Assembly: GCF_058153355.1 (NCBI RefSeq) | Contig: NZ_CM177019.1 | Length of the DNA stretch: 64,000 nucleotides | Reading direction: 5' to 3' (one strand) | In this document: piece by piece, positions 3,806 through 27,727 of the stretch | Position numbering within the stretch: the stretch's first letter is position 1 | How the letters are laid out: each line of letters starts with the position of its first letter | Made by a program: the position numbers and the translations under genes | Notes under the pieces: generated by a model | Databases searched by the model: none | What the model saw: only the letters and a program-made list of their open reading frames with translations | What the model was told of the DNA's origin: nothing

Positions 3806-4669
3806 TTATTCCGGCTTATGAAACAGAATGGTGTTAATCTCGACATCAGTGATTGCGCCAGCTGCTTCTGCTTTATGTAACCAGTATAGCGCTTTGTCTT
3901 TATCCACACCGTTCTCATCAATGCCCCAGGCGTAAATGCGGCCTAAGGATATTTGGGCATGAGGTAAATCTTGTGCGGCAGCTTTTTCAAACCAGTATTT
4001 AGCCTGTTTAATATCAGCGGGTACACCATCGCCCGTTAAAAAGAGCGTACCATAATTATACTGACCAATTTTGTCGCCTTTTTCTGCCGCAAACTTAAGA
4101 TATGTCGCAGCCTGGAGATAATTCTTTTCCTCGGCTGCGAGGAGCCCTAAATTAGCATGTGCAATGGGGTTTCCCTTTTGCGCCGCTTTAACGAGCCAGG
4201 ATTTTGCTTTATCGATATCATGGAACTTCTCTGGACCAAACTGATAGATATTGGCACAGTTTATCTGTGCCTGAAGATTTCCCTGTCTGGCTGATTTCTC
4301 ATACCAGTGAATGGCATTCTGGTAATCCGGCGGTGTGTCTTCATCTCCCTGATGATATAAAAGCCCGACATAAAATTGCGCAATGTCATCTCCCTGACTG
4401 GCTGCCAGATTAAACCAGTAAAATGCTTTATCGCGGTTTTTAACCCCCGTTACCCCTTCCTGGTAAACAATTCCCAATCCTTTTTGCGCAGATTTATCGC
4501 CGCCTTGTGCCCTTGCGATGATATTTTTCAGGTTTTCCTGTTTGTTTTTAGAATAACGTTGTTCAGCCTGGATAAGATCATCAAGCGAGGGTTCTTTGGC
4601 ACAATAACCTGTAAGAGGAAAATGCAAAATTAGTAGAGTAAATAAAATTAACTTTTTCATACATTCCAT
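3806..4669 (-). CDS. Sel1-repeat (TPR-like) protein with N-terminal signal peptide; not present at this position in K-12
   Basis: 287-aa ORF; hydrophobic N-terminus MKKLILFTLLILHFPLTG; repeated ~36-aa units with A-x-YWF/ W-Y-E-K-A-A-x-QG spacing typical of Sel1 repeats. Confidence 0.7.
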   Translation of the reverse strand: MECMKKLILFTLLILHFPLTGYCAKEPSLDDLIQAEQRYSKNKQENLKNIIARAQGGDKSAQKGLGIVYQEGVTGVKNRDKAFYWFNLAASQGDDIAQFYVGLLYHQGDEDTPPDYQNAIHWYEKSARQGNLQAQINCANIYQFGPEKFHDIDKAKSWLVKAAQKGNPIAHANLGLLAAEEKNYLQAATYLKFAAEKGDKIGQYNYGTLFLTGDGVPADIKQAKYWFEKAAAQDLPHAQISLGRIYAWGIDENGVDKDKALYWLHKAEAAGAITDVEINTILFHKPE

Positions 4670-21300: not shown

Positions 21301-21763
21301 CGTTTTACTCTGTGTTGGCAATAGCATGATGGGCGATGATGGCGCAGGTCCGCTGCTGGCGGAAAAGTGCGCCGCCGCGCCGAAAGGTAACTGGGTGGTG
21401 ATTGACGGCGGAAGCGCACCGGAAAATGACATTGTCGCCATCCGCGAACTGCGCCCGACGCGACTGCTGATTGTCGACGCTACGGATATGGGGCTAAACC
21501 CCGGCGAGATCCGCATCATCGACCCGGATGACATCGCTGAGATGTTTATGATGACTACCCATAACATGCCGCTGAACTACCTTATCGACCAGTTAAAAGA
21601 AGACATTGGCGAAGTGATTTTCCTCGGCATCCAGCCGGATATCGTCGGTTTTTACTACCCGATGACCCAGCCGATTAAAGATGCGGTAGAAACCGTTTAT
21701 CAACGACTTGAAGGCTGGGAAGGGAATGGTGGATTTGCGCAGTTAGCGGTGGAAGAAGAGTAG
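21293..21763 (+). CDS. hycI: Hydrogenase 3 maturation endopeptidase
   Basis: 156-aa [25 protein letters not shown]... Confidence 0.95.
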   Translation: MTDVLLCVGNSMMGDDGAGPLLAEKCAAAPKGNWVVIDGGSAPENDIVAIRELRPTRLLIVDATDMGLNPGEIRIIDPDDIAEMFMMTTHNMPLNYLIDQLKEDIGEVIFLGIQPDIVGFYYPMTQPIKDAVETVYQRLEGWEGNGGFAQLAVEEE

Positions 21764-21787
21764 TTTTTCAGTAAGGAATTCAGGGAA

Positions 21788-22156
21788 TTGAAAATCAGAA
21801 CAGGGATGTGCGCTTTTTTATTTTGCTTAGTGCTTCCTACGCAGGCTACCAGCTTTACCGAATATCTGCCAATGAGTGACAGCGAATACGCGCAAAAGCG
21901 GGCGCTGAAACCTCTCCTGACTATGCCTTATTATACCGAGCAAACCTGGCATTTTAGAAAAGTGGGCGTTGCTGGCGTGACGCTTGAGAAGATGCCAAAT
22001 GAAGAGGATTACTGGCAATTAACTGCTAAAGACCGCGCCGGTAAATCCTGGAAGGTGCCTGTGGGTATGCTGGCAAATATGGCGGGCAAAGGGCAACTCT
22101 ATCGCGCCGATCTGGATCGTAACGGCATTCAGGATCTGGTTACCAAGTGCTGGTAA
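21788..22156 (+). CDS. Hypothetical secreted protein (N-terminal part of a possibly split gene), accessory
   Basis: 122-aa ORF with signal-peptide-like N-terminus MCAFLFCLVLPTQA and a DLDRNGIQDL motif; no K-12 counterpart at this locus. Confidence 0.45.
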   Translation: MKIRTGMCAFLFCLVLPTQATSFTEYLPMSDSEYAQKRALKPLLTMPYYTEQTWHFRKVGVAGVTLEKMPNEEDYWQLTAKDRAGKSWKVPVGMLANMAGKGQLYRADLDRNGIQDLVTKCW

Positions 22157-22187
22157 TGGTCTGGCTCCTTATGCACATTTAATCCTT

Positions 22188-22553
22188 ATGACGTTCACGC
22201 GCGATGGTCGTCCCTGTGTCTTTGAACCCTGGGGATTCTACACCGCAAGCAAAACTGGCGTAGATGATTTGCTGGATTTGCAAGGCAATGGCCACACACA
22301 ATTGCTGGATATGCAGTTTAATTCTGGTTACTGGATAACCAGTCTGTATCAGGTAAAAGACGCCAAATGGCAACGTGTTCACGGCTGGTTTGGCAAGTTA
22401 AGCTATCCCGCGCTCACGCGTTTTACTTATACCCCCAACCGTAAACTCGTCCTCAAACCCATTGCCGGGCGTGACCCGCAAACGGAAGATTTAGCGCTGA
22501 CGCAGCGTTGTTTGATAACAGGGGATGTGCTTGATGGGGTGAATCAGAACTGA
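22188..22553 (+). CDS. Hypothetical protein (possible C-terminal part of the same split gene), accessory
   Basis: 121-aa ORF in a different frame 31 bp after the previous stop; contains a DLLDLQGNGHTQLLD motif. Confidence 0.4.
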   Translation: MTFTRDGRPCVFEPWGFYTASKTGVDDLLDLQGNGHTQLLDMQFNSGYWITSLYQVKDAKWQRVHGWFGKLSYPALTRFTYTPNRKLVLKPIAGRDPQTEDLALTQRCLITGDVLDGVNQN

Positions 22554-22715
22554 CTTTTTGCAGAGTGGGTATGAGGATTTTGGGGGAGAATTATATCGCG
22601 CGCAAGTGTTTACATATTGTGAACTTGGATTTGGTGAGCTATAGTTTCTGAACACATAAGGATAGAACTCGCAGATGTGGCTGTTTACTTACTATAAGGA
22701 AGTTAAAACTTAAAA

Positions 22716-23027
22716 ATGCACATCATTTCGAAAGCGCCATTTGAAGAGTCTGCGCGCAAATATCCTAACGACGCTCTGGCTCTACACTCATTGTATCGGG
22801 TTATTAAGGAAACGGATTTTTCTACGCCAGAAGAAATGCGAACGGCGTTTCCCAACCTCGACAATTTTAAATATCGCAACAAATGGTACGTTCTGGATGT
22901 CGGCGGGAACAATCTTAGGGTTATTGCCTACATAAACTTTGTTAATAAGCGGTTCTTTGTGAAGCACATAACGAATCATGCCGAGTATGACAAACTGACA
23001 CGTTACTACAGAGAGAACAAAGAATGA
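22716..23027 (+). CDS. HigB-like toxin (RelE/ParE superfamily mRNA interferase)
   Basis: 103-aa ORF; similar in length and conserved segments (FPNLDNFKY, VGGNNLRV, H..YD) to E. coli HigB; toxin gene precedes antitoxin with a 4-nt ATGA overlap. Confidence 0.75.
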   Translation: MHIISKAPFEESARKYPNDALALHSLYRVIKETDFSTPEEMRTAFPNLDNFKYRNKWYVLDVGGNNLRVIAYINFVNKRFFVKHITNHAEYDKLTRYYRENKE

Positions 23028-23443
23028 CTGCTAATGCTGCACGCGCTGTTAAAGCAACAAGAGAACTGGTCAATGCAGTCCCCTTTCTGGGAGGCAGTGA
23101 CTCAGAAGATGATTATCGTGAAGCACTGGAACTGGTCGAATATTTGATTGAAGAAGATGACACCAATCCACTTATCGACTTTCTGGCGAGCCGCATTGCA
23201 GAGTATGAAAACAACCACGAAAAGTTTGCAGAGTTCGACAAAGCCGTTGCTGCAATGCCGGTTGGCGTGGCGTTACTTCGCACGTTGATTGATCAACATA
23301 ATCTGACCTATGCGGATTTGAAGAACGAAATCGGCTCTAAATCCCTGGTCAGTCAGATTTTGTCTGGACAAAGATCCCTGACGATATCCCACATTAAGGC
23401 ACTTTCAGCCCGATTTGGCGTTAAGCCGGAATGGTTTCTTTGA
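23024..23443 (+). CDS. HigA-like antitoxin (XRE-family HTH)
   Basis: 139-aa ORF; C-terminal segment IGSKSLVSQILSGQRSLTISHIKALSARFGV matches the HigA HTH region. Confidence 0.75.
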   Translation: MTANAARAVKATRELVNAVPFLGGSDSEDDYREALELVEYLIEEDDTNPLIDFLASRIAEYENNHEKFAEFDKAVAAMPVGVALLRTLIDQHNLTYADLKNEIGSKSLVSQILSGQRSLTISHIKALSARFGVKPEWFL

Positions 23444-23488
23444 TTTTGACTGATGCCAAACGCCAGATTGCCCGATGCGCAACGCTTA

Positions 23489-24718
<1,230 letters not shown>

Positions 24719-24748
24719 CATGCCTGCAATCTGGGAAACCGGGGTAGA

Positions 24749-24779
<31 letters not shown>

Positions 24780-24790
24780 TGTCGCACGAA

Positions 24791-24831
24791 CTATGTAGGC
24801 CGGATAAGGCGTTCACGCCGCATCCGGCACG
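24791..24831. repeat. REP element flanking the IS right end
   Basis: ctatgtaggccggataaggcgttcacgccgcatccggcacg, canonical REP palindrome. Confidence 0.8.
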
Positions 24832-24836
24832 TTTGC

Positions 24837-27727
<2,891 letters not shown>

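Follow-up and report, generated by a model that had tools for sequence, protein, structure and literature searches.

What is the pair of small, overlapping genes that occupies the accessory segment between hycI and ascB in a part of the E. coli chromosomes, and which role could it play there? The copy considered here lies in a stretch of 64,000 nucleotides (contig NZ_CM177019.1; referred to as the window in the following), whose relevant part is the hyc-asc interval of E. coli with the gene order hycF, hycG, hycH, hycI (ending at 21763), accessory segment, ascB and ascF. The higBA site is thus located between hycI and ascB, where the hyc genes and ascB represent housekeeping operons and not a defence island. 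A hypothetical gene of 251 aa, which is frameshifted in the window, precedes the pair. The genes that matter for the argument are:

22716 to 23027, plus strand: higB-like toxin gene, 103 aa, ATG start, HigB family PF09907 (YgjN-type) with a RelE/BECR fold.
23024 to 23443, plus strand: higA-like antitoxin gene, 139 aa, ATG start, N-terminal toxin-binding/dimerisation domain and C-terminal XRE helix-turn-helix (HTH).
24837 to 26273, minus strand: ascB, convergent to the pair, with ascF beyond.

An earlier note on this DNA had described two open reading frames with a 4-nt overlap, and both are indeed found at these positions in the list of open reading frames as well as in the sequence itself. 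The ATG of higA (23024-23026) and the TGA of higB (23025-23027) share the four nucleotides ATGA, which can be read in aaagaATGActgct, and this overlap of start and stop codon implies translational coupling of the two genes. With the toxin gene in first place, the antitoxin gene directly behind it and the ATGA overlap, the pair has the organization that defines K-12-type HigBA modules. Based on our analysis, it is very probably a chromosomal type II toxin-antitoxin operon of the K-12 HigBA (YgjN/YgjM) family, namely a diverged second module between hycI and ascB. Profile, sequence, fold and gene order all back the earlier proposal of a toxin-first HigB/HigA-like module that is paralogous to the K-12 pair. 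By analogy to the characterized members, the toxin is most likely a ribosome-dependent mRNA interferase, and the antitoxin most likely neutralises it and represses the operon.

As a discovery, this assignment carries little weight, as the pair is an already known and annotated member of a well-studied family. In RefSeq, about 1,100 E. coli chromosomes carry the toxin gene under the name “type II toxin-antitoxin system HigB family toxin”, in each case between hycI and ascB, and its partner is named “helix-turn-helix domain-containing protein” or “HigA family antitoxin”. A literature search for the hycI-ascB paralogue, using the neighbouring genes and the RefSeq protein accessions, retrieved no publication. 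What is mildly noteworthy is that the toxin was lost repeatedly in the population while the antitoxin was retained, as described below.

For the toxin, there is evidence from profile, sequence and fold. In the HMM profile search that the earlier note had recommended, the 103-aa protein matches Pfam PF09907 HigB_toxin with an E-value of 3.8e-23 and 82 bits (cut-off 27), and the antitoxin matches HTH_3 (E 1.5e-9). At the level of known structures, residues 1-100 of the toxin align with PDB 5IFG_A, “mRNA interferase HigB” (E 7.1e-22), and the same residues match 6KML (E. coli K-12 HigB) and 5YCL (Shigella HigB) with E-values of about 1e-21; the identity to K-12 HigB (YgjN) is 39% in a gap-free alignment. 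Finally, an AlphaFold model of the toxin built from 19 homologues reached a pLDDT of 88.9, and Foldseek superimposed it on 5IFG_A and 6KML with TM values of 0.92-0.95 and an rmsd of about 1 Å, which places the model in the RelE/BECR fold. The next-ranked fold matches are Cami1, RelE and YoeB, which are all ribosome-dependent RNases.

In an alignment of 19 family members including K-12 HigB, which spans 38-96% identity, the residues M1, F35, P38, L48-D49-N50-F51, K56, G64, L67-R68, H88, Y91 and D92 are invariant. The window toxin retains every one of these positions, to which a catalytic role may be ascribed at least in part: by analogy to RelE and YoeB, we infer that R68, H88 and Y91 would form the active site. 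We give only family-invariant residues here, since the HigB proteins from S. pneumoniae and P. vulgaris are too distant for a transfer of their catalytic residues by numbering. This also applies to His54, Asp90, Tyr91 and His92 of Rts1 HigB (PMC7781912).

The name HigB covers two separate Pfam families (Table 1 of PMC11980606). PF09907 was the only Pfam family reported for our toxin, and there was no match to PF05015 at E <= 0.01. As judged from these profiles, the toxin is to be classified as a K-12 YgjN-type HigB (PF09907) and not as an Rts1/Proteus-type HigB (PF05015). An NCBIfam scan of both proteins gave no meaningful match, as the one for the antitoxin (16.8 bits) is attributable to chance; the RefSeq product name evidently derives from a rule other than an NCBIfam model.

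The antitoxin shows the corresponding HigA architecture, in which the toxin-binding/dimerisation domain is located at the N-terminus and the XRE HTH at the C-terminus. Residues 9-138 align with PDB 5IFG_B, “Antitoxin HigA” (E 2.3e-35), and the HTH_3 match (38 bits) covers residues 85-138. Its identity to K-12 HigA (YgjM) is 46%, and together with the 39% of the toxin this agrees well with the divergence from E. coli HigB/HigA that the earlier note had assumed; the identity to the partners of the orthologous toxins is considerably higher (61-77%). The HTH recognition region reads SKSLVSQILSGQRSLT in the window HigA and SKSMVSRVLSGKRKLT in K-12 HigA.

Among the known systems close to the pair is K-12 HigB/HigA (YgjN/YgjM, b3083/b3082; 5IFG, 6KML; PF09907), with which it shares toxin family and fold in a gap-free alignment over 100 residues, the antitoxin architecture, the toxin-first order with a 4-nt overlap and a 9-3-9 palindrome over the promoter. 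In contrast, the chromosomal site is a different one (fadH-rlmG in case of K-12 HigBA, hycI-ascB here), the identities of only 39% and 46% are low, and both the operator (GTTGCCA-N3-TGGCAAC versus GTTTACA-N3-TGTGAAC) and the HTH recognition helix differ. As a further difference to K-12 HigBA, the toxin of the hycI-ascB paralogue is found in about 20% and its antitoxin in 46% of the complete E. coli genomes. K-12 HigB arrests growth and cleaves only translated mRNA, while HigA neutralises the toxin and autorepresses the operon (Christensen-Dalsgaard et al., 2010; PMC2814082).

Judging from this homology, the hycI-ascB operon most likely works like K-12 HigBA, for which our analysis covers the sequence-level prerequisites. 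According to such a model, HigB would enter the ribosomal A site and cut the translated mRNA, which would stop translation. A HigA dimer would hold two HigB molecules through its N-terminal domain, and its C-terminal HTH would sit on the GTTTACA-N3-TGTGAAC palindrome and repress the operon. As soon as the labile HigA is degraded or diluted, be it by loss of the DNA, by translation arrest or perhaps by phage infection, HigB would be set free and the operon would be derepressed.

The region upstream of higB contains candidate signals for such a regulation:

22608 to 22624, plus strand: candidate HigA operator, the palindrome GTTTACAtatTGTGAAC (GTTTACA-tat-TGTGAAC), overlapping the -35 box and presumably bound by HigA.
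22617 to 22645, plus strand: sigma-70-like promoter, -35 box TTGTGA (22617-22622), 17-nt spacer, -10 box TATAGT (22640-22645), 9 of 12 consensus matches.
22696 to 22702, plus strand: Shine-Dalgarno-like AAGGAAG, with a poor spacing of 13 nt to the higB ATG.

Including the extended arms (GTGTTTACA and TGTGAACtt), the operator comprises positions 22606-22626, and the -35 box sits within its right arm. Within the 64 kb of the window, there is exactly one site with the degenerate pattern GTTYACANNNTGTRAAC, compared to 0.02 sites expected even if one mismatch is allowed. The same motif is found upstream of higB in the E. coli strains EC42405 and NMBU_W05E18, in Kosakonia and Xenorhabdus, on an IncFII plasmid contig and in a Salmonella prophage. 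Two copies (at about -73 and -35 relative to the ATG) are present in the Kosakonia chromosome and in Xenorhabdus, and one exact copy each was detected on the IncFII plasmid contig, in the Salmonella prophage and in the other E. coli alleles. In general, the E. coli alleles contain one clean palindrome and an unrecognisable second operator, whereas Kosakonia, Xenorhabdus and K-12 higBA have two; in the window, only the half-site TGTTTAC at 22682 is found downstream of the -10 box. The K-12 higBA palindrome CCGTTGCCAatcTGGCAACGG (CCGTTGCCA-atc-TGGCAACGG) has the same 9-3-9 geometry and another sequence, and a second, imperfect copy of it follows the -10 box in the K-12 promoter. Taken together, HigA probably represses its own operon via the GTTTACA-N3-TGTGAAC palindrome. 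Since the K-12 and the hycI-ascB module differ both in the operator and in the recognition helix of the HTH, they are probably transcriptionally insulated from each other.

The promoter/terminator scan is weak by itself, as the number of sites in this region was no higher than in shuffled sequence. Therefore, our promoter call relies on its position and on the same arrangement in the orthologues, with the -35 box in operator 1 and the -10 box 17 nt later; minus-strand sites of the scan within higA were set aside as chance matches. Concerning translation, the AAGGAAG of allele L004 is located 5 nt from the higB ATG. In the window and in the EC42405 allele, an 8-nt duplication (TTAAAAC/TTAAAAA) between the Shine-Dalgarno sequence and the ATG extends this spacing from 5 to 13 nt, which may lower translation of the toxin.

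Outside of K-12, two systems that are also named or likened to HigBA help to position the pair. For Salmonella SehA/SehB (STM4031/STM4030.S), identities of 40% to K-12 HigB and 46% to K-12 HigA are reported, and SehB is a dimeric autorepressor with two palindromic binding sites that cover the -35 and -10 boxes (PMC7160566). Judged via these published identities, SehAB is as far from K-12 as the window pair is, and it follows the same logic. The original SehAB description from 2013 (PMC3868539) is marked as retracted, and protein P0048, a candidate for SehA in our data, was dropped as it is prophage-borne. The HigB-HigA pair of Rts1 and Proteus vulgaris also has the toxin-first order, a ribosome-dependent RNase of the RelE superfamily and an HTH antitoxin. 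It differs by the PF05015 toxin family and by the position of the HTH, which is N-terminal in P. vulgaris HigA (PMC7984235) and C-terminal in the window HigA.

Much closer relatives are carried by mobile elements. Toxin homologues with 57-79% identity form a dense set in Enterobacterales, and each homologue that we examined pairs with an overlapping HTH protein of 138 or 139 aa. These orthologues, annotated as HigB family toxins, are plasmid- or prophage-borne and were found in Klebsiella, Leclercia, Enterobacter, Kosakonia, Salmonella and Xenorhabdus. They share the size of both proteins (103 aa plus 138/139 aa), antitoxin identities of 61-77%, the ATGA-type overlap and the operator motif GTTYACA-N3-TGTRAAC with the window pair. 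In contrast to the fixed position in E. coli, they are located on IncF-type plasmids next to repA, in immunity regions of lambdoid or P22-like prophages or on islands, and several of them have two operator copies compared to one in the E. coli chromosomal alleles. Overlapping pairs with these protein lengths from Kosakonia, Salmonella, Xenorhabdus and plasmid contigs were inspected with their surroundings:

Kosakonia: pair on the chromosome, in a segment with an integrase gene at a distance of about 4 kb.
Salmonella: pairs in immunity regions of P22-like or lambdoid prophages, beside cro/cI-like genes.
IncFII plasmid contig: pair next to repA.
Xenorhabdus: pair on the chromosome.

By tblastn, the family was detected in 1,002 plasmid records, of which 531 fall into the range of 60-80% identity, with Klebsiella as the main source, and in only 8 phage records. 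By these relatives on plasmids and in prophages, and not by the neighbouring IS621, the module can be placed in a horizontally mobile lineage, for which plasmid addiction is the likely ancestral role.

How widespread is the module within E. coli itself? The higB gene is present on 1,091 of 5,426 complete E. coli chromosomes (about 20%), including Nissle 1917, Seattle 1946 and O26- and O111-type strains, and higA on 2,508 of 5,426 (46%), always as a single full-length copy. Nine plasmid matches to higB with 60-80% identity in this E. coli set are relatives and do not represent the hycI-ascB locus. K-12 has neither of the two genes, so that the module is accessory, in accordance with the earlier description as extra to the core genome. 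The 1,091 chromosomes with higB can all be placed among the 2,508 higA carriers, which leaves about 1,417 carriers (57%) with an orphan higA, and a toxin without antitoxin was not seen among the sampled genomes. As 57% of the carriers do without higB, the toxin is dispensable and possibly costly. The locus occurs in the following variants:

Variant (a): hypothetical gene, higB, higA; found in EC42405, and in the window with IS621 in addition.
Variant (b): higB and higA present, promoter region diverged, hypothetical gene absent; found in NMBU_W05E18.
Variant (c), O104:H4 type: hypothetical gene, deletion corresponding to window positions 22577-22988, higA; junction present in 503 genomes.
Variant (d), R12 type: deletion corresponding to window positions 21970-22994, which leaves a 5' fragment of the hypothetical gene beside higA; junction present in at least 257 genomes.
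Variant (e), K-12: 158-bp spacer, which retains a stretch of 30 nt (27 nt identical) from the 3' end of the hypothetical gene, followed by a REP.

Hence, the toxin was removed by at least two different deletions. The deletion of variant (c) takes away the promoter and leaves just the final 39 nt of higB, and both deletions leave the higA start and 30-36 nt upstream of it intact. About 650 further orphan genomes were assigned to neither of the two junctions, and they share the right-hand breakpoint of variant (d) in the sampled genomes. The scar in variant (e) shows that the K-12 lineage once had at least the hypothetical gene; its junction shows only a CTGA microhomology. Differences among the E. 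coli alleles are mostly synonymous, with synonymous to non-synonymous ratios of 2:1, 4:1 and 6:2 for higB and up to 10:1 for higA, and this also holds for orphan higA alleles compared to the window (3:1 and 7:2), although all of these ratios are based on small numbers. In E. coli, higBA is therefore a fixed-position accessory locus under erosion, always with the toxin lost first. Such an order fits well with survivorship, as the loss of higA alone would be lethal with an active HigB, and it points indirectly to a toxin that works or once worked. The locus exists in four states, as it can be intact, lack the toxin owing to at least two independent events, be deleted completely except for a scar, or be IS-flanked, and as such it is a population-genetic example of modest value. 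In addition, it offers a natural system with close plasmid and prophage relatives for asking whether orphan antitoxins are under selection, for example for anti-addiction, whether paralogous HigBA modules are insulated within one cell and whether chromosomal HigBA contributes to phage defence.

The IS-flanked state is represented by the window, in which a single-gene element follows higA:

23689 to 24669: IS621 transposase ORF of the IS110 family (NCBIfam “IS110 family RNA-guided transposase”, 253 bits; RefSeq “IS110-like element IS621 family transposase”).
About 23497 to 24776: IS621 element with CT core flanks, inserted into a REP downstream of higA.

As a description, the adjacency to an IS element given in the earlier note is correct, with the element starting 54 nt past the higA stop codon. 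The interpretation attached to it, that this position points to addiction or defence cargo, did not stand up to the comparison of strains. EC42405, which is 99.1% identical to the window over the aligned interval and 99.7% over 22560-23480, carries an identical higBA module without the IS, and its uninterrupted empty site, ATCGGGCCT directly joined to ACATGTCG (in the longer form GCTTATCGGGCCT joined to ACATGTCGCAC), defines the span of the element given above. NMBU_W05E18 also has higBA at the locus without the IS, whereas in O104:H4 the IS sits at the same site next to a locus from which the toxin gene is deleted. Because IS621 targets REPs and the module is located outside of the IS ends, we regard the adjacency as coincidental. 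That higBA is a passenger of IS621 and was mobilised together with it is hardly credible: apart from the distance of 54 nt, the genes lie outside of the element ends, which the empty site sets in such a way that the pair is excluded, and the pair is found at the locus without the IS, and the IS without the toxin. Moreover, higA is a single-copy chromosomal gene in 2,508 of 2,508 carriers, compared to up to 28 places per genome for a query of REP plus IS621 end, which also matches REPs without the IS, and a higBA pair flanked by IS621 was not seen at any other genomic site. The junction query does not provide a count of IS621 at this particular site, since IS621 always resides in the same type of REP and other copies match as well.

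Which role does the chromosomal copy then fulfil? One reading takes it as a decaying relic, a stranded addiction remnant of a plasmid or prophage that has neither an active toxin nor proper regulation in the window strain. This would explain why higB was lost in 1,417 of 2,508 carriers by at least two deletions, why K-12 keeps only a scar, and why the neighbouring gene is frameshifted, the second operator degenerate and the Shine-Dalgarno spacing lengthened in the window. Nevertheless, we consider complete decay quite unlikely, as the higB ORF has its full length and all family-invariant residues, the allele differences are mostly synonymous and about 1,100 genomes still have both genes intact, for example those of Nissle 1917, O26 and O111. 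Besides, a dead toxin predicts deletions that remove higA and spare higB, a pattern that is missing from the sampled genomes. A different reading turns to the antitoxin: the chromosomal HigA, with or without its toxin, could neutralise a closely related HigB of incoming plasmids, which would then be lost without killing of the cell. In favour of such an anti-addiction role, most of the closest relatives reside on plasmids, HigA of the window and HigA of the IncFII plasmid contig share 75% identity, and higA is full length in all 2,508 carriers with mostly synonymous differences in the orphans. On the other hand, cross-neutralisation at 75-78% identity is hypothetical, the orphan variants have lost the promoter, which makes higA expression there uncertain, and survivorship bias alone already accounts for the toxin-first losses, as a deletion of higA next to an intact higB would be lethal. 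We judge anti-addiction to be about as doubtful as complete decay.

An anti-phage function by abortive infection or exclusion, in which HigB is released when an infection shuts down host expression as in other toxin-antitoxin-type defence systems, appears slightly less remote and still rather improbable. A first hint comes from the position of the relatives, as orthologous pairs are found in Salmonella prophage immunity regions beside cI/cro-like genes, and the toxin matches phrog_5734. A second one comes from PADLOC, which matched the toxin to PD-Lambda-2_A (E 1.9e-15), the HigB-like A component, and the N-terminal part of the antitoxin to PD-Lambda-2_B (E 2.1e-14, covering positions 9-115 out of 402 in the profile). 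PD-lambda-2, an abortive-infection system obtained by experimental selection, has a HigB-like first gene (Vassallo et al., 2022; PMC9519451). However, its toxic component is B, an Xre-peptidase fusion encoded by the second gene, and not the HigB-like A, and its third gene is required for defence (PMC9519451). The 139-aa antitoxin of the window contains no Pfam peptidase domain, and a third, P4-antitoxin-like gene is absent, as higA is followed by the REP, IS621 and the convergent ascB, and the IS-free alleles have no such gene either. This rules out the pair as a member of PD-lambda-2. Furthermore, the small number of 8 phage records with a homologue and the site between housekeeping operons instead of a defence island speak against a defence function. 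Thinking of selection on the locus as a whole, higA may be kept in 46% of E. coli (57% of these without toxin) because it disarms a closely related HigB that arrives with IncF-type plasmids or prophages, or the intact pair may provide protection by abortive infection, as hinted at by the pairs in prophage immunity regions elsewhere. In either case, the locus would be more than a selfish remnant; we regard this as a speculative and not very probable explanation.

A scan of positions 21700-24900 against Rfam returned a sub-threshold, REP-derived naRNA4 as its sole match and nothing that bears on the module, and for the 251-aa protein encoded upstream of higB no family was found in Pfam, PADLOC or PHROG. 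As a third component of the module this gene was ruled out, as the pair occurs without the gene (L004) and the gene occurs without the toxin (L002).

Besides the intact pair, complete E. coli genomes also carry versions of the locus from which the toxin gene has disappeared: higB and its promoter were removed by two different deletions, both of which left higA intact.

Deletion 1 (O104:H4 type): window 22577-22988 removed; junction at 3987-4001 of the O104:H4-type locus (L002); 503 complete E. coli genomes.
Deletion 2 (R12 type): window 21970-22994 removed; junction at 4000-4001 of the R12-type locus (L003); at least 257 complete E. coli genomes.

Overall, an orphan higA is found in 1,417 complete E. 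coli genomes. In K-12 MG1655, a comparison of the hycI-ascB spacer (L005 4416-4573) to window 22518-22547 and 23450-23497 shows that the site is not cleanly empty: 30 nt left over from the 3' end of the hypothetical gene upstream of higB are fused to the REP that lies 3' of higA in the window. The K-12 lineage has thus lost this segment by deletion.

The hypothetical gene itself encodes a protein of 251 aa in other strains, with a signal-peptide-like N-terminus and no assigned family in Pfam, PADLOC or PHROG. In the window it is frameshifted around 22140, where the 8-nt tandem repeat ATCTGGTT is one copy short. Together with the last 200 nt of hycI, the interval of this gene shares only 89% identity between O104:H4 and the window; elsewhere in the alignment, over the final 39 nt of higB, higA, IS621 and the ascB end, identity is about 97.5%.

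Hypothetical gene: window 21806-22553, between hycI and higB.
8-nt duplication TTAAAAC/TTAAAAA: within window 22696-22718, downstream of the Shine-Dalgarno sequence and ahead of the higB ATG.
IS621, IS110 family, complete: window 23497-24776, transposase ORF 23689-24669.

Intact higB alleles also vary in how far the Shine-Dalgarno sequence lies from the start codon: 5 nt in NMBU_W05E18, and 13 nt in the window and in EC42405, where the duplication lengthens the gap.

Downstream of higA, IS621, whose product is named "IS110 family RNA-guided transposase" in NCBIfam, is inserted at the CT core of the REP; the empty site in the EC42405 locus (L001) reads ATCGGGCCT/ACATG. The non-coding left end of the element (23497-23688, 192 nt), which presumably encodes the bridge RNA, matches no Rfam family. 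On the REP between IS621 and ascB, 24798-24842 matches the Rfam family naRNA4 at 39.6 bits, short of its gathering score of 59.5, which probably reflects nothing more than REP similarity.

Outside E. coli, orthologous higBA pairs lie in the immunity region of Salmonella prophages, adjoining cI/cro/YdaS-like genes, and such sites often harbor phage accessory or exclusion genes.

Salmonella prophage higBA: L008 5001-5728.
Salmonella prophage higBA: L009 5001-5728.
Salmonella prophage higBA: L014 4001-4728.

A single 162-aa protein of Klebsiella aerogenes (P0034) has matches to both PF09907 and HTH_3; it may represent a fusion of toxin and antitoxin, or else a pair disrupted by a frameshift.
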